Positions 8,885 through 37,715 of a DNA stretch of 64,000 bases are shown piece after piece. The DNA is from Alphaproteobacteria bacterium (GTDB taxonomy: Bacteria; Pseudomonadota; Alphaproteobacteria; Bin95): positions 352,001-416,000 of the forward strand of contig OZ219785.1 of assembly GCA_964291285.2 (NCBI GenBank). Reading direction: 5' to 3'. Each line of letters starts with the position of its first letter. Positions within the stretch are counted from its first letter, which is position 1. Below the pieces are notes generated by a model. That model worked only from the letters and a program-made list of their open reading frames with translations, was not told the DNA's origin and did not search any database. A program made the translations under genes and the position numbers.

Positions 8885-9495
8885 CATTTCCACGAAACAT
8901 GAAATATTTCCAATATTTTTGACTTCTGTTCGTGTTTTGATCTTGACATCTGGCGGATTGTGATATGATGGTCCCCAGGGAAGCGGACTCCGGAGCCGCG
9001 TCCCCGGGTGCCGCGCGGCCGAGCGACGCCGGTTTCTGAAAACCCGTGAGAAGCCGACGGGAGACGTGCGTCCTGCGTCTCGCGCGCGCAATCAGGCGCG
9101 CGAACCGCGCCGGCGCCGACACGCGCCCGGGCAGGCGCGGGCGCCCGCGCAGGATACGCGCGGAAAAGGGACCCCCTCCCCGTCGGAGAAGAGAGGAGAG
9201 ACGATGACCGCAACCGACCCCCAACTGGCCGCGATGCCGGCCGAAAAGCTGGCACCCGCCGCAGAGGCCCTTGCCAGCGCCTATGCGGAGGATAGGAGCG
9301 CAGCGCCGGCGGGTGGCAGCGCATGCTCCTCTTCCGCCCGGCGGGGGAGGAGGTCGAAGAGCGGAAAGCCCCATGCCCGAAACGGCTACAGCATATGAAC
9401 CCTGCGCATGCAGAACATGACATCTCATGACATATCGGAACACATGGCGAAGGAGGCCGGGCGCGCCTCATGACAAAACATGACATCCCATGACA
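8885..9495 (+). repeat. Dispersed element copy A (promoter, conserved leader 9059-9170, RBS + 64-aa ORF 9204-9398, CATGACA arrays)
   Basis: Shares GCGCAATCAGGCGCGCGA core and flanks with 23990-24110 and 37455-37577; CATGACA at 9416, 9426, 9469, 9479, 9489. Confidence 0.8.
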
Positions 9496-9579
9496 CGCAG
9501 GGGGTTCCTGCGACCGGGCGGCTTCGCGCGCGCCGCTTGCCAAACCGGGCCGGACGGAGTATCCCGCCGGCCTCGGCGA

Positions 9580-9654
9580 GACCCCATCGTCTAGAGGTTA
9601 GGACACCACCCTTTCAAGGTGGAGACACGGGTTCGATCCCCGTTGGGGTCACCA
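9580..9654 (+). tRNA. tRNA-Glu (anticodon TTC)
   Basis: GACCCCA/TGGGGTC acceptor stem, CCACC-CTTTCAA-GGTGG anticodon arm, GTTCGATC T-loop, encoded CCA; TTGCCA-17-TATCCC promoter upstream. Confidence 0.96.
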
Positions 9655-9688
9655 CGCGGCACACCCCTCGCCAGGAGGCGCAACCCCC

Positions 9689-9910
9689 ATGTCCGAGCGG
9701 ACCCTGTCCATCGAATACTGCGTGGCTTGAAACTACTAGCCGCGCGCCCTCCGTGCGAGGGACATACTGCAGGCGAACACCGGCCTTGCCGTGGAACTGG
9801 TCAAGGGCGGGGGCGGCGTCTTCGAAATCCGGCGGGACGGCGCGACGCTGTTCTCCAAGAAGGCGACGGGGCGCTTCCCCACCGACGAGGAATTGCACGC
9901 GCTGCAATAG
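9689..9910 (+). CDS. SelT/SelW/SelH (Rdx family) selenoprotein, CxxU, with an extra in-frame TAG (recoded or pseudogene)
   Basis: AGGAGG RBS; MSERTLSIEYCVA(TGA)NY(TAG)PRALRARDILQANTGLAVELVKGGGGVFEIRRDGATLFSKKATGRFPTDEELHALQ. Confidence 0.85.
9747..9761 (+). promoter_or_regulatory. Candidate bacterial SECIS hairpin
   Basis: CCCTC-CGTGC-GAGGG; apical loop with GU starts 22 nt after the UGA. Confidence 0.5.
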
Positions 9911-9915
9911 CCCGC

Positions 9916-11334
9916 ATGCGCCGCCCGACATTTCCCGCATGGCTTCTGGCGGCGCTGCTGCTGGCCGCCCAGCCGGCGCATGCCCATGAACCGCGCGCGA
10001 CCGTCCCGGGTTCCGCGGAACAGCTGCGGCTCTCCTTCGCTCCAGTGGTGCGCGCCGTCCGGCCTGCGGTGGTCAACATCTTCACGACCGGGCGCAGGGT
10101 CGAGCGCCGGTCGCCCTTTTCCGGCTTTCCCTTCCTCGACGACCCCTTCTTCCACCGCTTCTTCGATTTCGGCGACCGGCGGCGGCAGCGGGCGCAGAAT
10201 TCGCTCGGCTCCGGCGTGGTCGTCGGCGCGGACGGGCTGATCGTGACCAACCACCACGTCATCGAGAATGCCGGCGCAATCAAGGTCGTGCTCGCCGACC
10301 GGCGCGAGTTTCCGGCAAAGGTCGTGGCTTCCGACGAACGCAGCGACCTCGCCCTCCTCCGGGCCGGGCTCGACGGCGCAACGCTCCGGCCGGCGGTACT
10401 CGGAGACTCGGACGGCCTCGAAGTCGGCGACCTCGTGCTGGCGATCGGCAATCCCTTCGGCGTCGGCCAGACGGTGACCTCCGGCATCGTCTCGGCGCTG
10501 GCGCGCACCGGCCCCTCGGCGCGCGGCCCCGGCTATTTCATCCAGACGGACGCCGCCATCAATCCCGGCAATTCGGGCGGCGCCCTGGTCAATCTGGCCG
10601 GCGAGGTCATCGGCGTGAACACGGCGATCTTCTCCCGCAGCGGCGGCTCGCACGGCGTCGGCTTCGCCATCCCGTCCAACCTCGTGCGGGTCATGGTCGA
10701 GACCGCCCGGAGCGGCGGGCGCGTCGTCCGGCCCTGGCTCGGCATCGAGAGCCAGCCGGTGACGCCCGACCTCGCGGACACGCTCGGCCTTGCCCGGCCG
10801 GGCGGCCTTCTGGTCCGGGCCGTGCGCCCCGACGGGCCGTTCGCGCGCGCCGGCGGGGCGCGGGGCGACGTCATCCTGTCAATAGACGGGCACCCGGTAC
10901 TCGACAGGGCGGCGCTGCGCTTCCGCATGACCACGCTCGGGCCGGGCGGCGAGGCCGAGTTCGGGATCGTCCGGCGGGGCGAGGAGGCGGTGCTCTCCGT
11001 TCCGGTGGAGCTTCCGCCGGAAGTGCCACCGCGCGACCGCAGGCAATTGCGGGGGCCGCATCCGCTCGCCGGCGCCGAAATCGTCAACCTGTCGCCGGCG
11101 GTGATCGAGGAGTTCGCCTTCAGCGGGCCCGGCGCCGGCGTGATGATCGCGGAGGTGGCGCGCGGTTCGCCCGCCCGGCGGCACGGCTTCCGGCCGGGCG
11201 ACCTGCTCCGCAGCATCGACAGGCAGGAGCCGGAGAGCACGGCCGAGGCGGAGGCCATTTTGCGGGCTGGCGAGCGTCCGTGGCGCATTTCGATCTGGCG
11301 CGGCGGGCGTTCGCTGACGACAATCTTCCGATGA
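9916..11334 (+). CDS. DegP/DegQ (Do family) periplasmic serine protease
   Basis: Signal peptide, VTNHHV, IQTDAAINPGNSGG, two PDZ regions. Confidence 0.93.
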   Translation: MRRPTFPAWLLAALLLAAQPAHAHEPRATVPGSAEQLRLSFAPVVRAVRPAVVNIFTTGRRVERRSPFSGFPFLDDPFFHRFFDFGDRRRQRAQNSLGSGVVVGADGLIVTNHHVIENAGAIKVVLADRREFPAKVVASDERSDLALLRAGLDGATLRPAVLGDSDGLEVGDLVLAIGNPFGVGQTVTSGIVSALARTGPSARGPGYFIQTDAAINPGNSGGALVNLAGEVIGVNTAIFSRSGGSHGVGFAIPSNLVRVMVETARSGGRVVRPWLGIESQPVTPDLADTLGLARPGGLLVRAVRPDGPFARAGGARGDVILSIDGHPVLDRAALRFRMTTLGPGGEAEFGIVRRGEEAVLSVPVELPPEVPPRDRRQLRGPHPLAGAEIVNLSPAVIEEFAFSGPGAGVMIAEVARGSPARRHGFRPGDLLRSIDRQEPESTAEAEAILRAGERPWRISIWRGGRSLTTIFR

Positions 11335-12620
11335 CCGACTCGCTGTTCCAGGCCGCAGGGCTCGCGGACGAGGCGCCCCGCCCGCTCGCCGACCGGCTGC
11401 GTCCGGCGTCGCTGGGCGAGGTCGTCGGGCAGGACCATGTGCTCGGGCAGGACGGACCGGTGGGGCGGATGCTGGCCGCCGGCAGGCTCGCCTCGCTCGT
11501 CTTCTGGGGGCCGCCCGGCTGCGGCAAGACCACGATCGCGCGCCTGCTGGCGGGCGCCGCGAACCTGCACTTCACCGCGCTCTCGGCCGTCTTTTCGGGC
11601 GTGGCCGACCTGCGCAAGGTCTTCGCCGAGGCCGAGAGCCGGCGCGAGGCCGGCCGGGGCACCATGCTGTTCGTGGACGAGATCCACCGTTTCAACCGCG
11701 CCCAGCAGGACGGGTTCCTGCCCTGGGTCGAGAACGGCACGGTGGTGCTGGTCGGCGCGACCACGGAGAACCCGTCCTTCGAGCTGAACGCGGCGCTGCT
11801 CTCCCGCGTCCAGGTGCTGGTGCTGCGCCGGCTGGACGAGGACGGGCTGGAAACCCTGTTGCAGCGTGCGGAGGCGAGCCTGGGTGCGCCGCTGCCGCTG
11901 GATCGCGGCGCGCGCACGGCGCTCAAGGCGCTGGCGGACGGCGACGGGCGCTACCTGCTCAACCTCGCCGAGGAGGTCGCCGGCGGGCCGGTGCTCGATG
12001 CGGCCGGCCTTGCCCGCGTGGCCCAGCGCCGGGCGCCGGTTTACGACAAGGACCGCGAGGGCCACTACAATCTCATCAGCGCGCTGCACAAGTCGCTGCG
12101 CGGCTCGGACCCGGACGCCGCGCTCTACTGGCTCGCGCGGATGCTCGACGGCGGCGAGGACCCCCGCTACATCGCCCGCCGGCTGGTCCGTTTCGCTTCG
12201 GAGGATGTGGGGCTTGCGGACCCGGCGGCGCTGCCCGCCGCGCTTGCCGGCTGGGAAGCATATGAACGCCTCGGCAGCCCCGAGGGCGAGCTTACGCTGG
12301 CCCAGACGGTGCTGCATCTGGCGACGGCACCGAAGTCGAACGCCGCCTATGCCGCTTTCGGCGAGGCCATGCGCGCCGCGCGGGAGACCGGGTCGCTCAT
12401 GCCGCCGATGCACAGCCTGAACGCGCCCACCCGGCTGATGAAGGACCTGGGCTACGGCGAGGGCTATGCCTACGACCACAATGCCCCGGACGCCTTCGCC
12501 GGCGTCAACTACTTCCCGGACGGCATGGCGCGCCAGCAGTTCTATCGCCCCGAGGGCCGCGGCGCGGAGGCGGACATCGCGGAGCGTCTGGCCGCCTGGG
12601 CCCGGCGGCGGCAGGCGTGA
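11331..12620 (+). CDS. rarA: Replication-associated recombination protein A (RarA/MgsA)
   Basis: PLADRLRP, WGPPGCGKTT, VDEIHRFN, ISALHKSLRGSDPDA. Confidence 0.94.
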   Translation: MTDSLFQAAGLADEAPRPLADRLRPASLGEVVGQDHVLGQDGPVGRMLAAGRLASLVFWGPPGCGKTTIARLLAGAANLHFTALSAVFSGVADLRKVFAEAESRREAGRGTMLFVDEIHRFNRAQQDGFLPWVENGTVVLVGATTENPSFELNAALLSRVQVLVLRRLDEDGLETLLQRAEASLGAPLPLDRGARTALKALADGDGRYLLNLAEEVAGGPVLDAAGLARVAQRRAPVYDKDREGHYNLISALHKSLRGSDPDAALYWLARMLDGGEDPRYIARRLVRFASEDVGLADPAALPAALAGWEAYERLGSPEGELTLAQTVLHLATAPKSNAAYAAFGEAMRAARETGSLMPPMHSLNAPTRLMKDLGYGEGYAYDHNAPDAFAGVNYFPDGMARQQFYRPEGRGAEADIAERLAAWARRRQA

Positions 12621-12994
12621 GCCTCTGGCTGGCGGTCGCCGCCGGCGGGGCGCTGGGGGCGCTCGCGCGCTGGCTCATGGTGGTGCAGGTGACGCGGCTG
12701 CTCGGCGCCGGCTTCCCGGCAGGCACGATGGTCGTCAACGTGCTGGGCTCGCTGGCGATGGGGCTGGTTGCCGCCCTGCTGGCGCAGGGGCTCTCGCTCT
12801 CGGCCGAACTCCGGACCTTCCTCACCGTCGGCTTCCTCGGCGGCTTCACCACCTTCTCCGCCTATTCGCTGGATGCCGTAGGGCTGGCGGAGCGGGGCGA
12901 ATGGGCGGGGGCCGCGTTCTACACCGCGGGCTCGGTCGCGCTCGGCGTACTGGCATTCCTCGCCGGCGCCCGCCTCGCGCGCGTCCTGCTGTGA
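12617..12994 (+). CDS. crcB: Fluoride efflux channel CrcB/FluC
   Basis: GGALGALAR, GTMVVNVLGS, GFLGGFTTFS. Confidence 0.93.
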   Translation: MSLWLAVAAGGALGALARWLMVVQVTRLLGAGFPAGTMVVNVLGSLAMGLVAALLAQGLSLSAELRTFLTVGFLGGFTTFSAYSLDAVGLAERGEWAGAAFYTAGSVALGVLAFLAGARLARVLL

Positions 12995-13953
12995 CAGGCG
13001 TCCGGCTGGAAGAGGTTGCCGCGGACGAAGCCGGCCTGCGGCTGGACCGCTGGGTCGCGCGCCGGCGGCCGGACCTGCCGCAGGGCCGGTTGCAGAAGCT
13101 CCTGCGTACGGGGCAGGTGCGCGTGGACGGGCGGCGCGCCCGCGCCGGCGACCGGCTGGAGGCGGGCGCCGTGGTGCGCCTGCCGCCGTTCGGCCCGCCG
13201 CCGGAGCCCCGGCCGGCGCCGCTGCCCGGCAGGCTGGTGGAGGAAGTGCGCGGCTGGGTGCTGCATCTCGATGAGGCGGTGATCGCGCTCGACAAGCCCG
13301 CCGGCCTCGCCGTTCAGGGCGGCAAGGGCACGGTGCGCCATCTGGATGGCATGCTGGAGGCGCTGCGCTTCGATGCGCCCGAACGCCCGCGTCTCGTCCA
13401 CCGGCTCGACAAGGACACGAGCGGCGTGCTGCTGCTGGCGCGGAGCGCAGCCGATGCGGCGCGGCTGACGGCGGCCTTCCGGGCACGGGAGGCCGAGAAG
13501 CTCTACTGGGCGGTGACCGCCGGCGCGCCGGAGCCGCCTGCCGGGCGCATCGCGCTGCCGCTGGCGAAGCGCGGACGGCCGGGCGGCGAGCGGGTTTCCG
13601 TCGATGATGACGGCAAGCGCGCCGTCACCGACTACGAGACCCTCGCCCGCGCGGGCAAGCGCGCCGCCCGTCTGGCGCTCCGCCCGCAGACCGGGCGCAC
13701 GCACCAGCTCCGCGCGCATCTGGCCGCAATCGGCTGCCCGATCCTGGGCGACGGCAAATATGGCGGCAGAGCGGCCTTCCTGGAGGGCATCGGCCTTGAG
13801 CCGCGCCTGCACCTGCACGCCCGCGCCATCGCGCTGGACCATCCTCGCGGCCGGGGCCGGCTGGAAGTCGAGGCCCCGGCCCCGCGCCTGCTGCGAACCG
13901 CCTTCCGCCTGCTGGGTCTGGAGGTTCAGGGAGATGCCAGCTCCCCGCGGTAA
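12991..13953 (+). CDS. RluA/RluC family pseudouridine synthase
   Basis: S4 domain, DKPAGLAVQGG, VHRLDKDTSG, TGRTHQLR. Confidence 0.92.
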   Translation: MTGVRLEEVAADEAGLRLDRWVARRRPDLPQGRLQKLLRTGQVRVDGRRARAGDRLEAGAVVRLPPFGPPPEPRPAPLPGRLVEEVRGWVLHLDEAVIALDKPAGLAVQGGKGTVRHLDGMLEALRFDAPERPRLVHRLDKDTSGVLLLARSAADAARLTAAFRAREAEKLYWAVTAGAPEPPAGRIALPLAKRGRPGGERVSVDDDGKRAVTDYETLARAGKRAARLALRPQTGRTHQLRAHLAAIGCPILGDGKYGGRAAFLEGIGLEPRLHLHARAIALDHPRGRGRLEVEAPAPRLLRTAFRLLGLEVQGDASSPR

Positions 13954-15325
13954 AGCGCCTCGGTCGCTTCGTCGAAGCAGGTGAAGACGATGCGCGAGAA
14001 GCCCGCGCCGTGGGCGCGCGCGGCGGTAACCGCGATGCCGGCCGCGCGGTCCGGCGGGAAGCCGTAAACGCCGGTTGAGATGGCGGGGAAGGCGATGGAG
14101 CCCAGGCCGTGCTCCCGCGCGAGCGCGAAGCTGTTGCGGTAGCCCGACTTCCGCAACTCGGCTTGAGAATCGACTGATTTGACGGTTTTCCGGCGCGAGA
14201 AGTGTCGGATTTCGGTGCAGTACCTCTCGGGACCGGCTTGTAGTGCCGACCTACCCCCTTGATCGGGCTGGCGAAGATCCGGACGCTGCGCTGATGTTCG
14301 TGCGCTGCAAGAGACGCTTCAAGGACGGCAAGGAGCACCGCTACTGGAGCGTTGTGGAGAACGTCCGGGTCCACGGCGGTCGGGTTGTTCAGCGTCAGGT
14401 GCTCTATCTCGGGGAGATCAACGACAGCCAGCGAGCGGCGTGGTGCCGCTCGATCGAGGTGGTGGAGGGCAAGTCGCGATCACGGCAGATGGCGCTGTTT
14501 CCCGAGGACCGGGAGGCGCCGGCGCTGACTTGCGAAGTGGTGAAGATCGACCTCTCGCAGGTGGCGCTTCACGACCCGCGCCAGTGGGGGGCGTGCTGGC
14601 TGGCGCTGTCCTTGTGGGACCGCCTGGACCTGGACCGCTTCTGGGAAGAGCGGCTGCCGGCGAGCCGGCAAGGCACGCGGTGGCTGGACATCCTGAAGAT
14701 CCAGGTCTGCTACCGGCTGATCGACCCGGGCAGCGAGTGGCGCCTTCACCGTCACTGGTATGAGCACAGCGCGCTTCGCGATCTTCTGGGTGGCGAGCGG
14801 GCGATCGCCGACGACACACTCTATCGCTGTCTCGACAAGCTGCTGGCGCACAAGCAGGGCTTCTTCTCGTTTCTGCGCGACCGCTGGGCGACGCTGTTCG
14901 AGGCGCGCTTCGACGTGCTGCTCTACGACCTGACCTCGACCTACTTCGAGAGCGATCCGCCGTTCGATGACAAGCGCCGCTTCGGCTACAGCCGGGACAA
15001 GCGGCCCGACTGCGTGCAGGTGGTGATCGCCCTGATCGTTACGCCGCAGGGCTTTCCGCTGGCCTATGAGGTGATGCCGGGCAACACCTCCGACGACACC
15101 ACGCTGGCGGCGTTCCTCAAGAAGATCGAGGATCAGTATGGCCGCTCCGAGCGGGTGTGGATCATGGACCGCGGCATCCCCACCGAGGAGACGCTGGCCG
15201 CGATGCGCGAGGGCGAGGCGCCGGTGCGCTACCTGGTGGGCACGCCCAAGGGCCGGCTGACGCGGCTCGAGAAGGTGTTCCTGGGCCTGCCCTGGCAGGA
15301 GGTGCGCCAGTCCGTGACTGTCAAG

Positions 15326-17232
15326 CCCAACTTGAACAGTCGGTGTCGATTTTTGCCGGGCGCGGTTTCGCCAAGTTGTTGAAATGATTGGATAGTGAGG
15401 TGATGATTGGCGCGGGTTGAGAAAAATGTAGTGAAACATTTTTGCTGATTTGGCCTTGTTTTCTTGATTGGTCGATATCGAAGACATACAACGCGGTCAT
15501 GTTCGTGCGCGAAACGACCGCCCGGGGCCACCGCTATCTCTACCTCGTGGAGAGCGTGCGCGAGGGCAAGCGGGTGCGCCAGCGCACGATCCGCGCGCTC
15601 GGCCGCAAGGACGTGTTGCAGGCGAGCGGGGAGCTGGACCGTCTGATCGCGTCCCTGGCGCGCCATTCGGAGCGGTCCGTGGTGCTGGAGGACATGGAGG
15701 CGGGCGCGCTGGCCTGCGTGCGGGTCGGCGGTCCGCTGCTGTTCGGTCGGCTGTGGGATCGGCTGGGCGTGGGCGCTGTCGTGAAGGAGCTTCTGGACGG
15801 TCGCGGCTTCGGGTTCGCCGTCGAGCGGGCGGTGTTTGTGAGCGTTCTGCACCGTCTGTTCGTGTCGGGTTCGGACCGGTCCTGCGAGAAGTGGATGGCC
15901 GACTACGCGATCGAGGGGATCGAGGGGTTGCGGCTTCATCAGCTGTATCGGGCGATGGCCTGGCTCGGGGAGGAGCTGGAGGCGCCGGCGGAAGGCGCGC
16001 TTGCGCCGCGCTGCGTGAAGGACGGGATCGAGGAGCGTCTGTTCGAGCACAGGCGGGACCTGTTCACCGACCTGTCTGTGGTGTTCATGGACACCACGAC
16101 GCTGTCGTTCCACGGCGCGGGCGGCGAGACGCTGGGCGCGCACGGCTACTCGAAGGACCATCGCCCGGACTTGCGCCAGATGGTTCTGGCGGTGGTGCTG
16201 GACGGCGAGGGCCGGCCTGTGTGCACGGAGATGCTGCCGGGCAACACGGCCGACACCAGGGTGCTGCTGCCGATCGTGGACCGTCTTCGGTCACGCTTCG
16301 GGATCGGTCGTGTGTGCGTGGTGGCGGACCGGGGGATGATCTCGGCGGCGACGATAGCGGCGCTGGAAGAGCGGGGGCTGGACTACATCCTGGGCGCGCG
16401 CGAGCGGCGCACGAAGGTGGTCCGCGAGGTGGTGCTGAAGGACACGAAGCCCTTTGTGCCGCTGCTCCTCAAGCGTCCGCGCGGCGAGACGCAGCTGTTC
16501 GTGAAGGAAGTCACGGTGGGCGGCGCGCGCTACATCGTGTGCCGCAACGAGGCGGAGGCACAGAAGGACCGCGCCGACCGGCAGGCCGTGGTGGACGGCC
16601 TCCAGCGCCGCCTTGCGGACGGCGAGAAAGCGCTGATCGGCAACAGCGCCTACCGGCGTTATCTGCGCCGCACGGGCGCGGGCAAGGCGTTCGAGATCGA
16701 CGCCGGCAAGCTCGCCGAGGAGGCCGGCTTCGACGGCATCTTCGTGCTGCGCACCAACGCCGGCATGACGCCGCTCAATGCCGTGCTCCGCTACCGGGAG
16801 CTGCTCACGGTGGAAGACCTGTTCCGCCGGGCGAAGGCCCAGTTGCGCACCCGCCCGATCTACCACTCCTGCGACGCCGCGATCCGCGGCCACGTCTTCT
16901 GCTCCTTCCTCGCGCTCGTCCTCCAGAAGGAACTGGCCGACCGCTGCGCCGCCGCCAACGTCAACGTCGAATGGGACGACCTGATCCGCGATCTCGACCG
17001 CCTGCAAGAGGCCACCATCGAGAAGGACGGCAAGCGCATCACCACCCGCACCCATGTCGAGGGCCAGGTCGGAAAGGTCTTCCAGGCCGTCGGCATCGCG
17101 CTGCCGCCGAACTGGCGCGAACACAAAGCCTGACCGTCCCCAAAATCAACGAAATGTAGTGGGTACACCCGGCGATGCCGGTGTAACTCCCTGTTCTATC
17201 GAATACTTTTAATCGTCACTGTTGAAGTTGGG
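15326..17232 (+). mobile_element. IS1634-family element (inner, intact)
   Basis: TIRs CCCAACTTGAACAGT / ACTGTTGAAGTTGGG; 5-bp duplication TCAAG. Confidence 0.92.
15499..17133 (+). CDS. IS1634-family DDE transposase (544 aa)
   Basis: YLYLVESVREG, FMDTT, GYSKDHRPD, VADRGM, VEDLFR, RPIYH. Confidence 0.92.
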   Translation: MFVRETTARGHRYLYLVESVREGKRVRQRTIRALGRKDVLQASGELDRLIASLARHSERSVVLEDMEAGALACVRVGGPLLFGRLWDRLGVGAVVKELLDGRGFGFAVERAVFVSVLHRLFVSGSDRSCEKWMADYAIEGIEGLRLHQLYRAMAWLGEELEAPAEGALAPRCVKDGIEERLFEHRRDLFTDLSVVFMDTTTLSFHGAGGETLGAHGYSKDHRPDLRQMVLAVVLDGEGRPVCTEMLPGNTADTRVLLPIVDRLRSRFGIGRVCVVADRGMISAATIAALEERGLDYILGARERRTKVVREVVLKDTKPFVPLLLKRPRGETQLFVKEVTVGGARYIVCRNEAEAQKDRADRQAVVDGLQRRLADGEKALIGNSAYRRYLRRTGAGKAFEIDAGKLAEEAGFDGIFVLRTNAGMTPLNAVLRYRELLTVEDLFRRAKAQLRTRPIYHSCDAAIRGHVFCSFLALVLQKELADRCAAANVNVEWDDLIRDLDRLQEATIEKDGKRITTRTHVEGQVGKVFQAVGIALPPNWREHKA

Positions 17233-23744: not shown

Positions 23745-24260
23745 TGTCATGAGATGTCATGGTTTACCGTGAAGGCCTGCGGGACACCACGCGATATGTC
23801 ATGAAATGTCATGTTTTGCATGCGCATCGAGCATGTCCCACGGCTGAATCAGGCATGAGGTGGTCGTTTCGGGCGGAGCGTCCGGGTATTCCATCCCGTT
23901 TCCCGGGTTCTGCATCTTCGGCATCGGCTTCTCCTCTCGATCCATCTTCGTTCCAATGTTCCTGCCGCTGGCTCTTCAAGGCGGCGGGACCCTAATTCGC
24001 GCGTAATGTGCGCGGGCGCCCGCGCCTGCCCGTGCACGTTCCGCGGCGGCGCGAATCGCGCGCCTGATTGCGCCTGCGCGCGCGAGGCCGAACACAGGGC
24101 ACACGTCTCCTGCCCGCTGCCAAGGGTCTCCTGGCACCGGCATGGAAGACGAAGCAGCCTCCGGATGCCGCTTTCTTCCTCCTGTCCCATACTATCATGG
24201 ATTTCCGGGGATTTGCTCTTATCAGAGAAATAATTCTGGATTAGTGAACAAAAACACTTC
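23745..24260 (-). repeat. Dispersed element copy B (leader 23990-24110, RBS + 41-aa ORF 23799-23924, CATGACA arrays)
   Basis: TGTCATG at 23745, 23755, 23797, 23807; GCGCATGCAAAACATGACATTTCATGACATATCG nearly identical to copy A. Confidence 0.78.
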
Positions 24261-26892: not shown

Positions 26893-26963
26893 TTCCCGTT
26901 TCCCCTTCAAGCGAATCGGACGCGCTCACATAAGCACCGGCTGCGGCGGCGGCAAGGGCAGTC

Positions 26964-28022: not shown

Positions 28023-28158
28023 GGCCGCCCGCTCCCTCCCGATGCGCCCAGCCGGCCACGATAAGGGCCGCCGCCGCCGCCCGCAACGCGGACCCGGCCC
28101 GGTCGCGCGAGCCGCGCGGATGGGGCATGATGGCGGCTCGGGCAGGGAGACAGGACTC

Positions 28159-29097: not shown

Positions 29098-29109
29098 GGA
29101 CGGCCGCTC

Positions 29110-29514
29110 CTACCAGAAGGGCGTCTCGCTGACCGTGGAGACGTGGGCGGCCACGACCTTCCAGCCGAGGTCCGGGAAGCGCGCCCAGGTCTGGCTCTGC
29201 CGGCCGATGAGGTCCCGGCCACGCACCTTGAACTCCAGGTTGACCACCGCCCAGTCGCGCCCGAGGGTCAGGATTTCGAGCCGCCGGCGCGCTTCCTTGA
29301 TGCCCGGCCCCGACGGGCGGGCGACGCGGTGCGCGTGGATCTCGTCGAAGCCGTAGCCGTTCTCGTGCAGCGCATAGCGGATGGTGTGCGGGCTCTCCCA
29401 GAAGGTCGCGTCCAGCACATCGACATTCTTCGTCTCCAGCGCCGCTTCATAGGCCTCGAAGCGGGCGCGGACCTCCGCCACCACTTCCGGGATATTGGGC
29501 GTCATGTCGGTCAT
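29110..29514 (-). CDS. AtzH/HpxZ-like (DUF3225) protein
   Basis: FEAYEAAL..LDATFW..ENGYG..GRQSQTW..WKVVAAHVS. Confidence 0.85.
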   Translation of the reverse strand: MTDMTPNIPEVVAEVRARFEAYEAALETKNVDVLDATFWESPHTIRYALHENGYGFDEIHAHRVARPSGPGIKEARRRLEILTLGRDWAVVNLEFKVRGRDLIGRQSQTWARFPDLGWKVVAAHVSTVSETPFW

Positions 29515-30683: not shown

Positions 30684-30686
30684 CGG

Positions 30687-31070
30687 CTAATCCCGCTCGA
30701 TGAGCTGGTAGAGCACGCCGTGGCCGTCGGCCGGGTGGACGAACACCATGCCGGTCGCCTCGATGAGCCGCGCGCCGTTCTCCGCCATCTGCGTCTTCGC
30801 GGCCTCAAGGTCGTCCACGGCAAGCGCCACGAGGTGCAGCCCCTCGCCGTTCTTTTCGAGGCTGCGGGCAATCGCGCCGTCGCCGAGCGGCTCGGCGAGC
30901 TCGATGAAGCGCCCGGAGTCGCCGAGCGGCAGGATCGCGCGCCGGAGCCCCAGATCGGGCTCGTCCTCCGGCGGCGCCTCCGCCTTCAGCCCGAGCTTCG
31001 TTTCGTAGTCCTCGAGGCTCCGGTCGAGGTTCCGGACCCGAACGACGATATGGTCGATCCACTTGTGCAT
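30687..31070 (-). CDS. VOC family protein (methylmalonyl-CoA epimerase-like)
   Basis: IDHI..V.NL, IELAEP, GEGLH, FVHP..HGVLYQLIE. Confidence 0.82.
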   Translation of the reverse strand: MHKWIDHIVVRVRNLDRSLEDYETKLGLKAEAPPEDEPDLGLRRAILPLGDSGRFIELAEPLGDGAIARSLEKNGEGLHLVALAVDDLEAAKTQMAENGARLIEATGMVFVHPADGHGVLYQLIERD

Positions 31071-31190
31071 GGCTTTCGCCTTCCTTACTCGCTGTTTTTC
31101 GCGCCGGCACCGGCGCCAAGATGGAATATTCCGCCCGCCCCGGCGGCCACCGCGAGGCGGGCGATGCGACAATCGGCACAGCCCGGCCCG

Positions 31191-31219
31191 CTTGAAGCGC
31201 GGCGGGCAGGCCGCTATAT
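31191..31219 (+). promoter_or_regulatory. Alphaproteobacterial consensus promoter upstream of DJ-1/PfpI gene
   Basis: CTTGAA-17 nt-CTATAT. Confidence 0.6.
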
Positions 31220-31350
31220 GGATGCCATAAATTTACTCCCGCGCCCATGACTGCATGGCCCGCGACGCCGTTTACGGCGGAACGGGACGGGAGACTTACA
31301 GTCGCGGACAGACGAATGGACCGCGAGGTTGAAGGAAGGAGAACCGCCCC

Positions 31351-31926
31351 ATGTCCGACCAGAAGCGCCTTTCCGGCATGACCGTCGCCGTGCTCGTCGC
31401 CAATGGCTTCGAGGAAATCGTCATGACCGACACCCAGAAGGCGCTGGCTGCCGAGGGCGCCGCGATCCGCATCGTCAGCCATGAGATCGGGCTGGCCAAC
31501 GGTTGGCATGAGGGGACCTGGGGTCACAATTTCTACATCGACACCCGCATTACGGACGCGCTGCCGAGCGACTTCGACGGCCTGCTGGTGCCGGGCGGGG
31601 AGCGCAGCATCGCCGCGCTCAGGGAGAACGCCCACGCCCGCCGCGTGGTCAAGGGCATGATGGAAGCAGGCAAACTCGTCGCCATTGTGGGCGACGCGGT
31701 GGAAATGCTGGTCGCGGCGGAAGCCGCGCGGGGCCGCAAGGTGACGGGCGCCGAGGCGTCGCGCGCCCGCGTCGAGGCGATGGGCGCCGTCTGGTCCGAG
31801 GCGCCGCTCACCGTCGATGGCAATCTGGTCAGCACCGCGAGCTCGGAAGAGCTGGAGGGGCTGATCGCCGCCGTGATCGACAGCCTTGTCGCCGCGCCGG
31901 AAGGCGAGCGCCAGCAGGCCGCCTGA
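31351..31926 (+). CDS. DJ-1/PfpI family protein (catalytic Cys absent)
   Basis: VAVLVANGFE, FDGLLVPGG, VDGNLV; AIVGDA replaces AICHG. Confidence 0.82.
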   Translation: MSDQKRLSGMTVAVLVANGFEEIVMTDTQKALAAEGAAIRIVSHEIGLANGWHEGTWGHNFYIDTRITDALPSDFDGLLVPGGERSIAALRENAHARRVVKGMMEAGKLVAIVGDAVEMLVAAEAARGRKVTGAEASRARVEAMGAVWSEAPLTVDGNLVSTASSEELEGLIAAVIDSLVAAPEGERQQAA

Positions 31927-31961
31927 CGCCCGTTTCCCGGCAAACCGCCCGCCGCCGGGGG

Positions 31962-32429
31962 TCAGAACACGCCCGCTTCGAGCCCGGCGGCGAGCGTCAT
32001 GCCGAGTTCCTCGCAGTCGGCGGCGAACGTCTCCTGCCATTCTCCCCGGCAGAGCACCGGCTCGGCCACCGCGCGCCAGCGCAGGCCCGTCGTAATGGTC
32101 TCGATGGCGCGCCTCGTGCCGGTGCCGTCATGGCCCGCGCGGATGTAGAAACCGAAGGGGCGGCCCTGGGTTTCCTCCAGGCAGGGATAGTAGATGCGGT
32201 CGAAGAAGTCCTTCAGCGCACCGCTCATATAGCCGAGATTCTCCGTCGTCCCGAGCAGCAGCGCATCGGCGGCGAGCACATGGTCCGGCGTCGCGTCGAA
32301 GGGGCTCAGCACCTCCGTTTCGACGCCCTCGATATCGGGATGGCGCGCGCCGGCCGCCGCGGCGTCCCGCAGCCGGAGCGTATTCGGCGAGGGCGCGTGG
32401 GCGACGATCAGCAGGCGGCGGCCGGACAT
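31962..32429 (-). CDS. Flavodoxin family protein
   Basis: HAPSPNT, GTTENLGYMSGALKDFFDR, AGHDGTG. Confidence 0.85.
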   Translation of the reverse strand: MSGRRLLIVAHAPSPNTLRLRDAAAAGARHPDIEGVETEVLSPFDATPDHVLAADALLLGTTENLGYMSGALKDFFDRIYYPCLEETQGRPFGFYIRAGHDGTGTRRAIETITTGLRWRAVAEPVLCRGEWQETFAADCEELGMTLAAGLEAGVF

Positions 32430-33499
32430 GCCTGCTCCAGCAGGAATGGCGCGCCCGAGCCGGCGGCGACGGCGCGGATCTCTTCGAACAGGGTCCCGGT
32501 CATCGGGATGCCGGTCGTGAGCCGTTCGTGGCGCGCGTCATGCTCGGGGTCGCCCGGCACCAGCACCGGCCGGGCCGGGTCGGCCGGCGGCGTCGCCCGC
32601 AGCGCCGCCATCAGCGAGCCCAGATCGCCGGCGAAACGCTCATTGAAGAAGGCGGGGTCGAGCGCGAGGAAGAAATGGCCGACCTCAATGAACCGGCCGG
32701 GCGCGCCCGTAGCCAGGTCGATGCCGCCCACATTCGCGCCGCCGAGCACGCTGGCGAGTATCTCCACCATCATCGCAAGGCCGTAGCCCTTGTGGCTGCC
32801 GAGCGTGCGGCTGCCGCCGAGCGGCGTCAGGCGCTTCGGCTTCGCATTGAAGGCGGCGGCCGCATCGGTCTCGGGCAGGCCGTCCGGGCGCACGGCCCAG
32901 CCTTCCGGCAGCGGCTTGCCGGCCCGGCGCGCGATGTTGACCTTGCCGACCGCGACGGTGCTGGTCGCCATGTCGAGCGAGAACGGGTCGCCCTCGGCCG
33001 GGCTCGCGGCAAACGCGATGGGATTGGTGGAGAAGCGCGGCTCGCGGGCGCCGGTCGGCACCACGGAACGCTGGGTCGTGCCGGTGCAGGCGAAGCCGAT
33101 GAGGCCGCGCCCGGCGGCGATGGTGGAATAGACGCCGGCCGCGCCGAAATGGTTGGAATGGACCACGACCGAAACGCCGAGCCCCGTCGCCGCCGCCTTG
33201 TCGCAGGCCCGTTCCATGGCGAAGCGCGCGGGCGGATGGCCGATGCCGTGGCCCGCATCGACCAGGGTCAGCACCGGCCCCTCGCGCAGCGTGCGGACCT
33301 CTGCCAGCGGGTCGATCCTGCCGTCGCGTCGGCGCTGGTCGTAGGTCGGCAGCATGCCGACGCCGTGGCTGTCTATGCCGCGCAGATCGGCCTCGACCAT
33401 GAGCGCCACGGCGGTCTCGACAGGCTCCGGCCGCATGCCCCAGGCGAGGAACACCGCCCGTATCTGCGCCGCCAGCACGCTGTGCGGAACGGTAATCAT
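32408..33499 (-). CDS. Ldh_2 family oxidoreductase
   Basis: ADLRGIDSHG, SNHFGAAG, TNPIAF, LDMATS, HKGYGLA. Confidence 0.9.
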   Translation of the reverse strand: MITVPHSVLAAQIRAVFLAWGMRPEPVETAVALMVEADLRGIDSHGVGMLPTYDQRRRDGRIDPLAEVRTLREGPVLTLVDAGHGIGHPPARFAMERACDKAAATGLGVSVVVHSNHFGAAGVYSTIAAGRGLIGFACTGTTQRSVVPTGAREPRFSTNPIAFAASPAEGDPFSLDMATSTVAVGKVNIARRAGKPLPEGWAVRPDGLPETDAAAAFNAKPKRLTPLGGSRTLGSHKGYGLAMMVEILASVLGGANVGGIDLATGAPGRFIEVGHFFLALDPAFFNERFAGDLGSLMAALRATPPADPARPVLVPGDPEHDARHERLTTGIPMTGTLFEEIRAVAAGSGAPFLLEQACPAAAC

Positions 33500-34530
33500 G
33501 CATGCTCCAGCAGGAAGGGCGCGCCGGAACGCGTGCAGACGTCGCGCAACTCCTCGAAGAGCGTGCCGGTCATCGGGATGCCGTTGGCCTTGCGCTCGGC
33601 ATGGGCTGCATATTCCGGGTCGCCGGCGACCATGACGGGCTGCGCGGGGTCGGCGGGCGGCGTCGCGCGCAGCATGTCGAGCAGCCGGTCCATGTCGGCC
33701 TCGAAATCCCCCTCCCCGCGCAGGTGCGAGGGATCGACGGCGAAGAAGAAATGCCCGGTCTCGTGGCCGAGGCAGCCGGAGAGCGTCGCGCAGAGGATCT
33801 CCACCATGGCGCCGAGGCCGTAGCCCTTGTGGCCGCCCAGCTCGCGCGTGCCGCCGAGCGGCGTCAACCGCCCGACATCGTGCCCGTGCGGCGCATCCGT
33901 GATCGGCGCGCCGGAACGGTCCACCATCCAGCCTTCCGGCAGCGGCTTGCCGGCGCGGCGCGCGATCGAGACCTTGCCGAACGCGACCGTGCTGGTCGCC
34001 ATGTCCAGCGCGAAGGGCCGGTTCGCCGCGGCCGGGGCGGCGAAGCCGATGGGGTTGGTGCCGAGCGCGGCATCGGCGCCGAACGTCGGGGCCACCTGCT
34101 TGGTCGGCGCATTGGTGAGCGAGAGGCCGACCAGCCCCTCTTCCGCCGCCATGCCGGAATAGTAGCCGGCAGCGCCGTAATGGTTGGAGTTGCGCACCGC
34201 GACCGCCGCCGCGCCCACCTGCCGCGCCTTGTCCATGGCGGTCCGCATGGCGAGCATAGCGGGCGGGTGGCCGAGGCTCCGCCCGGCGTCGATGAGCGCC
34301 AGCGCGCCCGTCTCGCGCTCGATGCGGATGTCGGGCCTCGGCTCGATGCGGCCCTCCTCCTTCGCCTTCTGGTACCAGGGCAGCATGCCGACGCCGTGGC
34401 TGTCGATGCCGGCGAGGTCGGTCTCGACCATGACATGCACGGTCGTCTCGATATGGTCGCGCGCCATGCCCCAGGTCTCGAAGACCGCGGCGATCTGGCG
34501 GCGAAGCAAGGTGTCGTCGATGGTATGCAT
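33496..34530 (-). CDS. Ldh_2 family oxidoreductase (tandem paralog)
   Basis: DLAGIDSHG, SNHYGAAG, GTNPIG, LDMATS, HKGYGLG. Confidence 0.9.
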   Translation of the reverse strand: MHTIDDTLLRRQIAAVFETWGMARDHIETTVHVMVETDLAGIDSHGVGMLPWYQKAKEEGRIEPRPDIRIERETGALALIDAGRSLGHPPAMLAMRTAMDKARQVGAAAVAVRNSNHYGAAGYYSGMAAEEGLVGLSLTNAPTKQVAPTFGADAALGTNPIGFAAPAAANRPFALDMATSTVAFGKVSIARRAGKPLPEGWMVDRSGAPITDAPHGHDVGRLTPLGGTRELGGHKGYGLGAMVEILCATLSGCLGHETGHFFFAVDPSHLRGEGDFEADMDRLLDMLRATPPADPAQPVMVAGDPEYAAHAERKANGIPMTGTLFEELRDVCTRSGAPFLLEHA

Positions 34531-34582
34531 GGCCTCTCCCCCCGCTCCGGCGCATGATAAGCCCGCTTGAGGAGGAAGCGCG

Positions 34583-35032
34583 ATGGCCGAATTCGACACC
34601 CCCGCCGAGGACGCAGACGCGATCCGGGCCTGGTTCGACGAGTGGGGCGCGGAGGTGGCGCGGCGGGATTTCGCCTCCGCGCGCCGGCGCTTCGACCCGG
34701 ATGTGCTCGGCTTCGGCACCTGGATGGACCATGTCGAGGGCCTGGATGCGCTGGAGGCGCGGCAATGGCGCAGCATCTGGCCCGGTATCGAGGATTTCGA
34801 GCACCTGACCGAGGGCCTGCGCTGCATGGTGTCGCCGGACCGGCTGATGGCCTTCGGGATGACGGTGTGGACCTCCACCGGCTTCCACGAGGACGGAACC
34901 GCATACGAACGGCCCGGCCGGACGACGGCGGTCTTCACGCGGGAGAAGCCCGGCGACCCGTGGCGCTGCGTGCACACCCATGTTTCGCTGTTCCGGGATG
35001 TGCCGCAGCGCTCCTGGGGCCGCGGGGCCTGA
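34583..35032 (+). CDS. NTF2/SnoaL-like family protein
   Basis: AGGAGG RBS; FDPDVLGFGT, GRTTAVF, WRCVHTHVS. Confidence 0.8.
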   Translation: MAEFDTPAEDADAIRAWFDEWGAEVARRDFASARRRFDPDVLGFGTWMDHVEGLDALEARQWRSIWPGIEDFEHLTEGLRCMVSPDRLMAFGMTVWTSTGFHEDGTAYERPGRTTAVFTREKPGDPWRCVHTHVSLFRDVPQRSWGRGA

Positions 35033-35045
35033 CGACGGCTGCGGC

Positions 35046-35219
35046 TCAGGCGGGCCGGCCGCGATAAGAGGGGTTCGAGGTCTGCCCGGCGAAACGGGCG
35101 GCGAGGAAGGCCCTGAGCCGGGCGAAGGCGGCGGCGAAGGCCTGGGCCCGCAACTGCCGGCCGCGGGCGACCGCCCGGTCGATTTCGGCTTGGGTGAGGG
35201 TGTAGGGTCTCTGGATCAT
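35046..35219 (-). CDS. Small protein, RSP_7527-like (57 aa)
   Basis: MIQRPYTLTQAEIDRAVARGRQLRAQAFAAAFARLRAFLAARFAGQTSNPSYRGRPA; GGAGACAGGA RBS; divergent from LysR. Confidence 0.65.
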   Translation of the reverse strand: MIQRPYTLTQAEIDRAVARGRQLRAQAFAAAFARLRAFLAARFAGQTSNPSYRGRPA

Positions 35220-35306
35220 CTGTCCTGTCTCCGGGTTCGGATTTCCGTTGACGCCCCATTTATTGCCGCTTTCTTCATTTACAATGAGACGAAAAATGAT
35301 ATGATA

Positions 35307-35323
35307 TTTGCAAATGAAGCAAA
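35307..35323. promoter_or_regulatory. LysR-type binding palindrome (T-N11-A)
   Basis: TTTGC-N7-GCAAA in the AT-rich divergent intergenic region. Confidence 0.6.
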
Positions 35324-35335
35324 GATGAGCGCGCC

Positions 35336-36292
35336 ATGAATTCCCTGAACGCCATTCGCCTGTTCACCGCCTCCGTCGATGCCGGCAGCTTCTCCGAGGT
35401 AGGGCGCCGGCTCGGCATGGCGCCTTCCTCGGTGTCGCGGCAGGTCGCGGCGCTGGAGGACAGCGTGGGCGCCCAGCTCATTCACCGCACCACCCGCAAG
35501 CTCAGCCTGACGGAGGCCGGGCGGCTCTATTTCGAGCGCGTCTCGCGCATCCTGGCGGCGCTCGACGAGGCGTCCGCCGCCGTCTCGCATCTGGAGGAGT
35601 CGCCGCGCGGCGTGCTGCATGTCAACGGACCCACGGCCTTCGGCGTCCGCCATGTCGCCCCGGCGCTCCCGGACTTCCTTGCGCGTTATCCGGAAGTGCG
35701 GATCGAGCTCACGCTCACCGACAATTTCGTGGACCTTCTGGAAGTGGGCGCCGATGTCGCCGTGCGCGTGGGCGAGCTCGAGGACTCGAGCCTGATCGCG
35801 CGCCGGCTCGCGCCCAACCGGCGCGTCCTCTGCGCCAGCCCCGGCTATCTGGCCAAGGCCGGATCGCCGGATCGCCCGCAGGACCTCGCGGACCACAATT
35901 GCCTCGTCTATACGCGCCACCACGGCAGTGTGAACTGGAACCTCGGCGGCCCGGACGGGCTCGCGGAAGTGCGCGTCGGCGGCAATCTGCGCACCAACAA
36001 CACCGAGGCGGTCCATGCCGCGGCGCTCGGCGGGCTCGGCATCGCGCTCCTGCCCTCCTGGCTGGTGGGGCAGGAGGTGCAGTCCGGCCGGCTCGTCGAA
36101 GTGCTGCCCGGCTACCGGGCCGCGCCCGGCGCGCTCGACACCGGCATCCACGCCCTCTACCCCGCCGACCGCCACCTCTCCACCAAGGTCCGCGCCTTCG
36201 TGGATTTCATGGTGGAACGTTTCGGCCCCCGCCCCTACTGGGAGGAGACGCCGGAGGGCAGCGCCGGACCGGATCCCCGGATGGCGCGCTGA
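35336..36292 (+). CDS. LysR family transcriptional regulator
   Basis: GSFSEVGRRL..SSVSRQVAALE..LIHRTTRKLSLTEAG; substrate-binding domain. Confidence 0.94.
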   Translation: MNSLNAIRLFTASVDAGSFSEVGRRLGMAPSSVSRQVAALEDSVGAQLIHRTTRKLSLTEAGRLYFERVSRILAALDEASAAVSHLEESPRGVLHVNGPTAFGVRHVAPALPDFLARYPEVRIELTLTDNFVDLLEVGADVAVRVGELEDSSLIARRLAPNRRVLCASPGYLAKAGSPDRPQDLADHNCLVYTRHHGSVNWNLGGPDGLAEVRVGGNLRTNNTEAVHAAALGGLGIALLPSWLVGQEVQSGRLVEVLPGYRAAPGALDTGIHALYPADRHLSTKVRAFVDFMVERFGPRPYWEETPEGSAGPDPRMAR

Positions 36293-36390
36293 AAACCGCG
36301 CGCCCGCGTCCGGAATCCCGGCCTGGCGAGGGCGGCCCAAGGCCGGCCGCCGCCGCAGGCAGCGCGGCGCGGCCGCGGACACCTGCGGAA

Positions 36391-37715
36391 TGTCATGAAG
36401 TGTCATGTTTTGTCATGGTCGGGGGCGGAACCGGCGTCCTCCGGGCCGGTCCTCCGCTTCTTCCCCTTCTTCTTTTTCTGCTTCTTCCTCCTCGCCGCCG
36501 GTCCGCTCCAATCGTCGTCTTCGTCGCCGCCCCGCTCTTCCCGTTCGAGGCGGCTCTGCCTGCGTTCCTCGACCTCCTCCGGGGCCCAGGGGTCGTAGAT
36601 GTCGTCGTAGCCGTTGCGGCGCTGGTATAGCCAGTCATGTTCGGCGCCGTCGGCCCGGTCGTCGTCGGTGCTGTCCTCGTGGCCGGGCGTGTCGGCGGCG
36701 GCCCACGGGCAGTCTTCGTAGGTCTCCTCCGGCGGGTCGTCGGCCGGCGGCAGGTCGTTTGCCGGCGCGGGCGGGGGGCCGAAGCCGACGGGCAGGCGGG
36801 AGCGCTCCTCGACGGCCGCGGCGAGCCTGCGGGCGGCCTCCTCATGCGCGGCCCCGTCGAAGCCCTCCTGCGCCTCCATCTCCTCGCGCCGCTCGCGGTG
36901 GCGGGCGAGCGCCCTCTCGGCCCGGTCCCGCCCCCGGCGCACGGCGTCTGCGAGCGGTCCGGGTTCGGTGCCGGTCTCCTGCGCCTCGCCCGCCTCGATC
37001 TCGCCGAACTCGTCCTCGTGCGGCAGCGGCCAGAGCCGGGCGCGGTTCGCGCCGGCCGGACTGACAAGCCCGGCGACCTCGGCCTGGAAGCGCAGTACCC
37101 GAAGCATCATGTAAGCCGAGCCGCTGGCGACGGCGGCGTCCCAGGCCTGCTCCGAGCGGGCGAGCAGGATGCGGGCCTCGTCGCGTTCGGTGCGCTTCCA
37201 GGACAGGCGGATGCGGCGCACGCGCTCAACGATGTAGGGCCGCTCCAGCAGGGCGCATCCGGTCTGCCTTGCGGAGCGCTCGGCATAGCCGGCCTGCCTT
37301 GCGGCGTCTGCGGCATTGCCGGAGGCGGTGTAGTGGCGGCAGAAGGCCTCCTGGCGGGTGGAAAGCGCGACGGCGGGGTCGATGACGGGCATGGTGTGCG
37401 GCTCCTTTGGTTCCGCTTCGGTTCGACGGCCATGCCGCCCCGGCATCGGAGCGACCCTTATCCGCGCGTATCCTGCGCGCGCCTGTGCCGGCGCGGGCGG
37501 GTGTCGGCGCCGGCGCGGTTCGCGCGCCTGATTGCGCGGGCGCGAGGCAGGCACAGGACGCACCTCGCCTGTCGGCTGAATCGGGGTCGTTCCGCACCGG
37601 GCCGGCGCGGGCGGGAAGCGGTCCGCGCGGACTTCGCTCACCTCGGACCCATTGTAGCACATTTTCCTAAAATGCAAGTCATGTTCTAGAATTTTTTCAA
37701 AATATGCGAACAAAC
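36391..37715 (-). repeat. Dispersed element copy C (longest; carries terminase-small-subunit-like gene)
   Basis: Leader 37455-37577 matches copies A and B; TGTCATG at 36391, 36401, 36411; TTGCAT-15-TACAAT promoter with extended -10. Confidence 0.8.
36403..37392 (-). CDS. Terminase small subunit-like HTH protein with acidic/basic low-complexity tail (329 aa)
   Basis: LSTRQEAFCRHY..SGNAADAARQAGYAERSARQTGCALLERPYI resembles the Terminase_2 N-terminus; AAGGAG RBS. Confidence 0.75.
   Translation of the reverse strand: MPVIDPAVALSTRQEAFCRHYTASGNAADAARQAGYAERSARQTGCALLERPYIVERVRRIRLSWKRTERDEARILLARSEQAWDAAVASGSAYMMLRVLRFQAEVAGLVSPAGANRARLWPLPHEDEFGEIEAGEAQETGTEPGPLADAVRRGRDRAERALARHRERREEMEAQEGFDGAAHEEAARRLAAAVEERSRLPVGFGPPPAPANDLPPADDPPEETYEDCPWAAADTPGHEDSTDDDRADGAEHDWLYQRRNGYDDIYDPWAPEEVEERRQSRLEREERGGDEDDDWSGPAARRKKQKKKKGKKRRTGPEDAGSAPDHDKT

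Follow-up and report, generated by a model that had tools for sequence, protein, structure and literature searches.

Three inserts, A, B and C, in a 64,000-nt stretch of DNA from an uncultured Alphaproteobacteria bacterium (Bin95; assembly GCA_964291285.2, contig OZ219785.1, positions 352,001 to 416,000 of the forward strand; hereafter the window) share one order of parts, in which a promoter-like box and a GC-rich leader precede an open reading frame (ORF) and arrays of the heptamer CATGACA phased at 10 bp. We consider it an even call that these inserts represent a lineage-specific, intergenic, multicopy and probably mobile element family whose arrays would be bound by a ring of a small-terminase-like (TerS-like) protein. 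Within this reading the anatomy of the elements, their copy number, orientation and co-distribution, the polymorphism of their sites, and the constraint on and fold class of the protein are established. A preliminary description, made from the window alone, had placed the three inserts and given their ORFs as 64, 41 and 329 residues long, those of B and C stopping within the arrays, and the sequence bears this out. The host assembly (G000) comprises 6.13 Mb in five contigs with 68% G+C.

The three elements are colinear, each running from an AT-rich stretch through a TTGACA-like hexamer, the motif TGnTAnnAT followed by GG, the leader and a purine-rich ribosome binding site (RBS) to the ORF and the heptamers. 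Their parts, in window coordinates, are as follows.

A, 8905 to 8942, + strand: AT-rich 5' end of the element, where similarity starts in an alignment of 16 A-type copies with their flanks; junction of a sister copy with conserved flank
A, 8943 to 8969, + strand: promoter-like box, TTGACA at 8943-8948, 15-nt spacer, TG at 8961-8962, TATGAT at 8964-8969 (extended -10 type)
A, 8975 to 9008, + strand: 5' hairpin at the predicted transcript start, a palindrome with compensatory changes, GC/AU in 8 and AU/GC in 10 sequences
A, 9056 to 9176, + strand: GC-rich conserved leader core, containing the near-invariant block GCGCAATCAGGCGCGCGAACCGCGCCG
A, 9204 to 9398, + strand: 64-residue ORF preceded by GGAGAG, a truncated remnant of the 'MTATDP' family
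A, 9376 to 9415, + strand: pre-array box CCCGAA..CAGNATATG..GCGCATGCAGAA, conserved in A and B
A, 9416 to 9432, + strand: array 1, two heptamers
A, 9469 to 9495, + strand: array 2, three heptamers, the 3' end of the element
B, 24189 to 24216, - strand: promoter-like box, GCAAAT at 24216-24211, TG at 24197-24196, TAGTAT at 24194-24189
B, 23925 to 24182, - strand: leader including the 5' hairpin and conserved core
B, 23799 to 23924, - strand: 41-residue ORF of the 'MPKT..EYP' family, with its stop in array 1
B, 23797 to 23813, - strand: array 1, two heptamers
B, 23745 to 23761, - strand: array 2, two heptamers, the 3' end of the element
C, 37651 to 37677, - strand: promoter-like box, TTGCAT at 37677-37672, 15-nt spacer, TG at 37659-37658, TACAAT at 37656-37651
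C, 37393 to 37644, - strand: leader
C, 36403 to 37392, - strand: 329-residue small-terminase-like protein (P0001), with its stop in the array
C, 36391 to 36417, - strand: array, three heptamers, the 3' end of the element
C flank, 36153 to 36280, + strand: direct repeat of 129 bp, left copy, corresponding to the neighbouring gene's 3' end (LysR-like by eye only)
C flank, 37730 to 37854, + strand: right, decayed copy of the repeat, 77.5% identical to the left copy

The stop codons of the B and C ORFs are the TGA of a heptamer. The longest frame of the B ORF starts 7 codons further upstream, which would give 48 residues. The reading frame of the 40-bp block just ahead of the first array differs between A and B, which marks the block as a cis element and not as coding sequence.

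The pattern CATGACAN3CATGACA, with at most one mismatch, occurs seven times in the window, always within A, B or C, and not at all in any of 100 shuffles. Genome-wide there are 901 CATGACA heptamers and 252 phased pairs. Arrays are made of two to eight 7-bp units with 3-bp spacers, and neighbouring heptamers within clusters lie exactly 10 bp apart in 252 of 331 cases and 11 bp apart in only two; a PhoB-type or antisense-promoter reading was dropped because the period is 10 bp and not 11. A two-round nhmmer search finds 116 leaders, and there are 113 phased arrays (defined by at least one heptamer pair at 10 bp). An array follows on the same strand, at most 5 kb downstream and mostly 50-1100 bp away, for 103 of the 116 leaders, in line with the genome-wide family of fixed orientation suggested earlier, and for the bulk of copies leader and array do not occur independently. 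The 13 leaders that lack an array and the 19 arrays (of 113) that lack a leader indicate that either part can be found alone, as a remnant or as a promoterless module. Ten modules that lack a promoter, 172-197 bp long and each situated between two arrays, resemble the 3' half of the leader followed by an RBS and a 12-codon ORF. The elements are small (about 0.4-1.5 kb) and dispersed over the five contigs, most with their own promoter-like box, and none of 75 complete units lies inside a gene call, the calls following a crude GC3-based rule, with no annotation used, and covering 73.5% of the genome. Among ORFs that follow a leader 52 of 87 end within a heptamer. As the period of 10 is not a multiple of three, three consecutive heptamers supply TGA and ATG in all three frames, so that any incoming ORF terminates in the array.

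Leader and arrays are distributed together in related genomes. In a family-level sample, 13 of the 16 genomes of the genus contain the leader; these 13 also have the triple heptamer, with between 7 and 129 copies per genome, and the TerS-like gene is present in 12 of the 16, typically as 8-10 full copies and additional fragments; none of 20 genomes from two sister genera has a triple heptamer, and a control with the reversed pattern gives no match in any genome. Matches to the leader in other genomes frequently span only query positions 110-245. A wider scan, with one genome per species, found 118 relatives of the TerS-like gene, of which 80 loci were kept. A phased heptamer pair is present on the gene strand at 58 of the 80 loci by the exact pattern and at 69 by a relaxed one, compared to none of the 80 on the opposite strand, and 7 of the 11 loci with no such pair are under 2,700 bases long and end at or soon past the gene. 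The leader lies directly upstream at 53 of the 80. Homologues at 46-60% identity lack the long leader but have (C/A)TGAC(A/G) units downstream at the same 10-bp period. Around one distant TerS-like gene (locus L091, 700-1350 and 2750-2960) lies a different short repeat with '..GRNDGRG..' translations, probably another interspersed repeat family. Most of the sequencing runs containing element sequence are labelled sponge metagenome.

The protein encoded by C is of the SF6/SPP1-type small-terminase fold class, with a helix-turn-helix (HTH) DNA-binding domain and a long helix following it. Residues 11-74 of P0001 match Pfam Terminase_2 (E 1.4e-11, 45.6 bits against a cut-off of 26.1), the only Pfam family found in C, and the protein matches phrog_51, 'terminase small subunit'; all 12 Terminase_2 matches in the host genome are element copies. 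A profile of 26 homologues retrieves PDB entries 2cmp and 4zc3 (the SF6 small terminase DNA-binding domain) and 3zqp (full-length, SPP1-like) at E of about 2e-6 to 1e-5. The AlphaFold model, a monomer with mean pLDDT (predicted local distance difference test) of 66.5, is good at residues 10-110, where residues 52-90 make up a long helix, and poor over a large part of the tail, and Foldseek aligns it to 2cmp and 4zc3 with a target TM-score of 0.82 and a root mean square deviation of 0.9-2.1 Å over 50 residues at 39-40% identity. A long acidic/basic tail, for which the model has low confidence, takes up the C-terminal two thirds of the protein. The first 125 or so residues are strongly conserved among the 26 homologues, which come from several lineages, and every one of them has ARQTG in its third HTH helix. 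Among eight paralogues in the host genome (28 pairs) the ratio of non-synonymous to synonymous substitution rates (dN/dS) is 0.24, being 0.19 for residues 1-125 and 0.28 for the remainder, which indicates selection of the TerS-like gene for function.

This fold class and the spacing of the heptamers suggest how the two may be connected. Small-terminase rings, according to passages of PMC4737164, place adjacent HTH motifs about one B-DNA turn apart, letting DNA wrap around the ring, and the SPP1 pac site contains direct repeats; how an HTH ring reads the SPP1/SF6 pac sites is described there as a question still open. Heptamers at every 10 bp are what a ring with one-turn HTH spacing would be expected to read. 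In the mechanism we propose, the TerS-like protein would assemble as small terminases do, spacing its HTH motifs by about one turn of DNA, and the assembled protein would bind the phased heptamers beside its own gene. It may also bind the heptamer-like TTGACAT box at the A-type promoter.

The relationship to phage proteins also invites packaging explanations. P0001 matches 36 phage records, the annotations under the match being mostly 'terminase small subunit', and the best of these homologies to bona fide phage TerS spans residues 10-129. The elements could then be dispersed packaging-initiation modules (terS with pac), left by or exploiting a pac-type phage, in which the TerS-like protein, once infection or induction occurs, recruits a phage large terminase (TerL) to some 100 chromosomal arrays; either packaging would be diverted, through satellite-like interference or a decoy effect against phage, or host DNA would be transferred at high frequency, much as gene transfer agents do, with spread between cells by transduction. 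We think this unlikely. The arrays do abut the 3' end of the TerS-like gene, and SPP1-like pac sites hold direct repeats at or next to terS (PMC4737164, in part). Element sequence is also present in one run labelled viral metagenome, and at G000:C3:1311901-1314864 (locus L123) the ORF behind the leader encodes a 400-residue N6_N4 DNA methylase-HNH endonuclease fusion, with an IS1595 insertion before the array. Genes of the DNA methylase-HNH type are common near phage packaging genes. However, TerL_ATPase and Terminase_6N have no match in the host genome, and its single TerL_nuclease gene (C2:89.8-91.4 kb) is part of a prophage-like head module (G000:C2:85389-91365, locus L105) comprising TerL_nuclease (527 residues), Phage_capsid-containing (454) and portal-like (371) proteins. 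This TerL_nuclease gene adjoins no element copy, nor are large terminase, portal or capsid genes adjacent to elements. A link of the elements to this resident cluster was rejected, as relatives of its TerL occur sporadically, in 4 of the 16 genus genomes compared to 13 of 16 for the elements. Array polarity is weak, 66 lying with GC skew and 47 against, and this equally made a replication polarity like that of FtsK orienting polar sequences (KOPS) unconvincing. The viral-metagenome run has an element-to-flank depth ratio resembling that of ordinary DNA runs, so enrichment in virus particles was set aside as a line of evidence either way. Searches of element DNA against phage and plasmid collections gave one 47-bp low-complexity match and no match, respectively. 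Packaging would, moreover, leave unexplained both the new insertion sites and the retention of promoter and leader in deletion derivatives. A related and similarly doubtful possibility is that a packaging-initiation module, with late-type promoter, leader, terS and pac-like array, has itself turned into a self-propagating repeat, whose roughly 100 arrays form a terminase-loading or recombination network. If true, this would be the first transposable-element-like family to have a small terminase as its only protein, and the network of arrays could serve to divert phages that infect the cell, to mobilise the chromosome, or to do both.

At least three families can be told apart among the ORFs that follow the leaders. 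The C-type family encodes proteins of 329-336 residues, eight copies having exactly 329 and a few being variants, and about eight internally deleted forms join the first 24-60 codons to the last few (e.g. G000:C2:1068692 and C1:227588). The 'MTATDP...' family, to which the 64-residue ORF of A belongs, is 192-234 residues at full length; Pfam gives no match for its member P0002 and only sub-threshold low-complexity hits for a paralogue, while each of its 147 relatives that has a stated source comes from a metagenome assembly, and among the 120 listed the two that are named are 'hypothetical protein'. The 'MPKT..EYPEP..' family, with B, is 31-41 residues long. Near-identical A-type copies differ by ORF frameshifts, indicating that most of the short ORFs are not conserved as proteins. 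The earlier suggestion that C is the complete form and A and B its internally deleted or replaced derivatives is not supported: A and B are no deletions of C and belong to two other ORF families. Internally deleted C-type copies do exist elsewhere. In the mechanism proposed here the retention of promoter, leader and arrays by the other subfamilies and the internally deleted copies would be the pattern typical of non-autonomous copies dependent on cis sites.

The leader is about 230-260 nt long and GC-rich, with a hairpin at its start. TAnnAT and the TG upstream of it do not vary in any of the 41 aligned leaders, which come from several genomes. In the 5' hairpin compensatory change is evident, with 19 double-change cells compared to 8.1 in shuffles, nearly all in two pairs; single-sequence folds of the A, B and C leaders have z-scores of -1.1, -1.1 and -2.9. 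A riboswitch-like leader was considered and dropped, because the consensus fold is weak and covariation is limited to this hairpin. In the window only tRNA matches Rfam at the gathering threshold, and relaxed Rfam searches of the leader (E limit 0.1 or 1) return nothing but snoRNA and aceE-II hits at chance level, well short of their cut-offs. In contigs of an RNA run the leader core of C has a depth 45-300 times that of the flanks, and about 100-240 times in three other runs, an excess that reflects copy number and says nothing on transcription.

Orthologous sites indicate a dynamic, probably mobile repeat. Site A, a spacer upstream of tRNA-Glu (9580-9651), is empty in genomes G007 and G009; G002 has a solo heptamer array there, and G005 and G015 carry different elements. 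G014 is empty at site C, as is one contig of run X21, which joins 36254 to 37859 with 22 other letters between them, whereas G010 has a full element and G006 and G007 an insert of 810-822 bp. At site B the element is kept in G014, with a differing interior and the second array lost, a single heptamer is left in G006, and G007 has other neighbours. A further sister copy occurs in four genomes with three different left neighbours, all breaking at one point, and some copies are 99% identical over 276 nt. The copy at G000:C3:1047862 has a longer version at the same site in G007, indicating that it arose by internal deletion in place. The preliminary description had supposed a spreading mechanism of the family's own; sites are polymorphic between species, but neither an enzyme nor a junction signature for copying was found. 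Between A and the gene upstream of it, window positions 8760-8880 are homologous to a longer small-ORF-like segment of G012 and G015, which the element truncates in the host genome.

Flanking repeats at E<1e-3 are present at 4 of 75 elements, two of them long (129 and 183 bp), the empty sites being from diverged species in which repeats of a few bp are unresolvable. The 129-bp repeat at C duplicates the 3' end of the neighbouring gene, its inner copy intact and its outer one decayed, and is single at the empty site of G014; the 183-bp repeat, its copies 90% identical, lies on both sides of the unit at G000:C3:1213614. A long target duplication as signature of the element was rejected, since it is present at C but at only two of the 75.

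Site variation also bears on a quite different explanation, a non-mobile regulatory gene family with a shared 5' untranslated region, its arrays being operators or roadblocks for one regulator and its growth due to duplication and gene conversion. Strong conservation of the promoter-like box, the Shine-Dalgarno sequence and the leader core would suit such a family, as would the mosaic nature of the copies, the persistence of B at its site in G014, and the resemblance of the A-type -35-like box CTTGACATCT to the array unit CATGACATCT at 9 of 10 positions. We nevertheless hold it to be very unlikely, as against it stand the lack of an orientation rule relative to the downstream gene (39 of the 75 units same, 36 opposite), the shifts of frame between short ORFs of near-identical copies, the filled, empty or solo-array states of orthologous sites, and triple arrays that number from 7 to 129 per genome and are absent from three members of the genus.

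If the elements are mobile, they could be non-autonomous passengers of a conventional recombinase encoded elsewhere, with the heptamers as accessory (arm-type or end-binding) sites and the TerS-like protein as an architectural or directionality factor. A run of three direct repeats in tandem, at about 10 bp, is reminiscent of arm-type or Xis/Cox-type sites. A degenerate heptamer-like motif that the element has at its 5' end, the 172-197-bp modules without promoter between two arrays at ten places, which look like array-joined cassettes, and a distant locus (L087) in which an integrase gene starts about 250 bp past the array are all compatible with this, and the host genome has about 100 tyrosine-recombinase matches. 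Yet none of its 113 arrays lies within 2 kb of such a match, compared to a mean of 5.7 for random placement, and the insertion sites share no evident core sequence. The Y1 HUH transposase (PF01797), for which a control search was positive in 6 of 14 known genomes, is not found in the host genome and is represented in 1 of 17 genus genomes by a fragment only. An IS3-family element that adjoins arrays has its own inverted ends and looks like a guest targeting the array flank. Taken together these findings make a recombinase acting from elsewhere an improbable explanation. The tyrosine-recombinase matches themselves, at window positions 60710-62670 (G000:C1:412710-414670) and about 100 other places, are often adjacent pairs or triplets, which we take to be like 'recombinase in trio' elements.

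Insertion sequences (IS) also lie in or beside the elements. The IS3-family element at G000:C1:689772-691019 (locus L140) has an OrfA with HTH and an OrfB with DDE core, both read by eye, and ends that begin TGGAGTGGGCCCC. Of the 34 ends of this family genome-wide 20 are at most 25 bp from a heptamer, typically 6 nt past the last one, and since the sequence after arrays is often TGGAG.GG the IS3-family element may home to look-alikes of its own ends. A second hot spot lies within the element: eight leader hits stop at profile position 269-272, share the next 19 nt and continue into one of two inserts, one of which is an IS with a 599-residue DDE_Tnp_1 transposase. These hits are as follows.

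G000, contig C1: 257679
G000, contig C2: 676349
G000, contig C3: 195923, 201388, 685815, 831406 and 941046
G000, contig C4: 199598

The DDE, IS21, IS110 and IS1595 genes between some leaders and arrays are separate insertions.

Several results weigh against a mobile family served by a TerS-like ring. The AT-rich promoter of the preliminary description stands only in so far as the TGnTAnnATGG box is present in all three elements; the promoter call is weak, because the TTGACA-like hexamer is at a 15-nt spacing and a sigma-70 scan (16-18-nt spacer) finds no promoter in the A, B or C regions. The leader is conserved mainly as sequence, covarying just in its 5' hairpin (RNAalifold covariation term -0.14), and its depth relative to the flanks is no higher in one RNA run than in DNA runs. 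The AT-rich 5' part is of two types that do not track the leader, so copies are mosaic, and gene conversion could explain part of their homogeneity. The ends of A, B and C have no terminal inverted repeat in common, the only pairs being GC-rich and due to chance, and Pfam finds no transposase among the C-type and second-family ORFs, both as first described; nor was a copying enzyme found, and long flanking direct repeats are confined to the two elements mentioned. Genome G008 has 7 triple arrays with no TerS-like match, and G009 has 67 with only fragments of the gene, in an assembly of 280 contigs. Finally, the isolated SF6 DNA-binding domain is described as a weak, non-specific binder in PMC4737164, so specific binding of the heptamers is a proposal here and not a given.

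If the reading of a mobile family bound by a TerS-like ring holds, a DNA-recognition protein of phage packaging would have become the centrepiece of a multicopy element whose ends are asymmetric and which lacks a recognisable transposase, and its exact heptamers, one per helical turn, would provide a clean natural test of how an HTH ring reads DNA. A limited full-text search of the literature found no description of a repeat family of such construction and nothing relevant beyond the small-terminase paper PMC4737164. The species-variable gene neighbours at element sites, together with the attraction of at least one IS family to near base-pair precision, indicate that the elements probably shape genome structure in their uncultured hosts.

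In the libraries searched, no mobile element or RNA family already described has the arrangement of these elements, and the preliminary view that no IS, REP, integron or CRISPR architecture fits is upheld, as the features of membership are lacking and no Rfam family applies. Phage satellites (PICI, PICMI) may carry their own small terminase to redirect packaging, but they are generally several kb long with integrase and replication genes, whereas the elements measure 0.4-1.5 kb, hold a single ORF and have no integrase close by. Repeats of CRISPR, about 28-37 bp long as generally understood, alternate with unique spacers of similar length, in contrast to the 7-bp units and 3-bp spacers seen here. 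Integron cassettes likewise have a variable ORF followed by a conserved, recombination-site-like 3' element, and the tandem promoterless modules at ten places recall them. The elements differ in being dispersed, in having their own promoter-like box and in carrying direct heptamers in place of a palindromic attC; the integron integrase (IntI) was not searched for. With MITEs (miniature transposable elements with inverted repeats), REP/BIME, Correia and RUP repeats, as generally known, the family has in common about 100 short intergenic copies, internal-deletion derivatives beside longer 'master' copies, presence that varies between relatives and a role as target for other IS. It is distinguished from them by the lack of terminal inverted repeats and of a transposase, in cis or matched to the family, and by asymmetric ends, a promoter at one and direct-repeat arrays at the other. 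The SF6/SPP1 small terminase (G1P) is similar in its N-terminal HTH, the long helix that follows and the direct repeats by its gene, whose spacing fits the geometry of the ring (PMC4737164, in part). The elements depart from that system in lacking adjacent packaging genes, and in being multicopy, with a long protein tail and exact 7-mers at 10 bp placed 3' of the gene.

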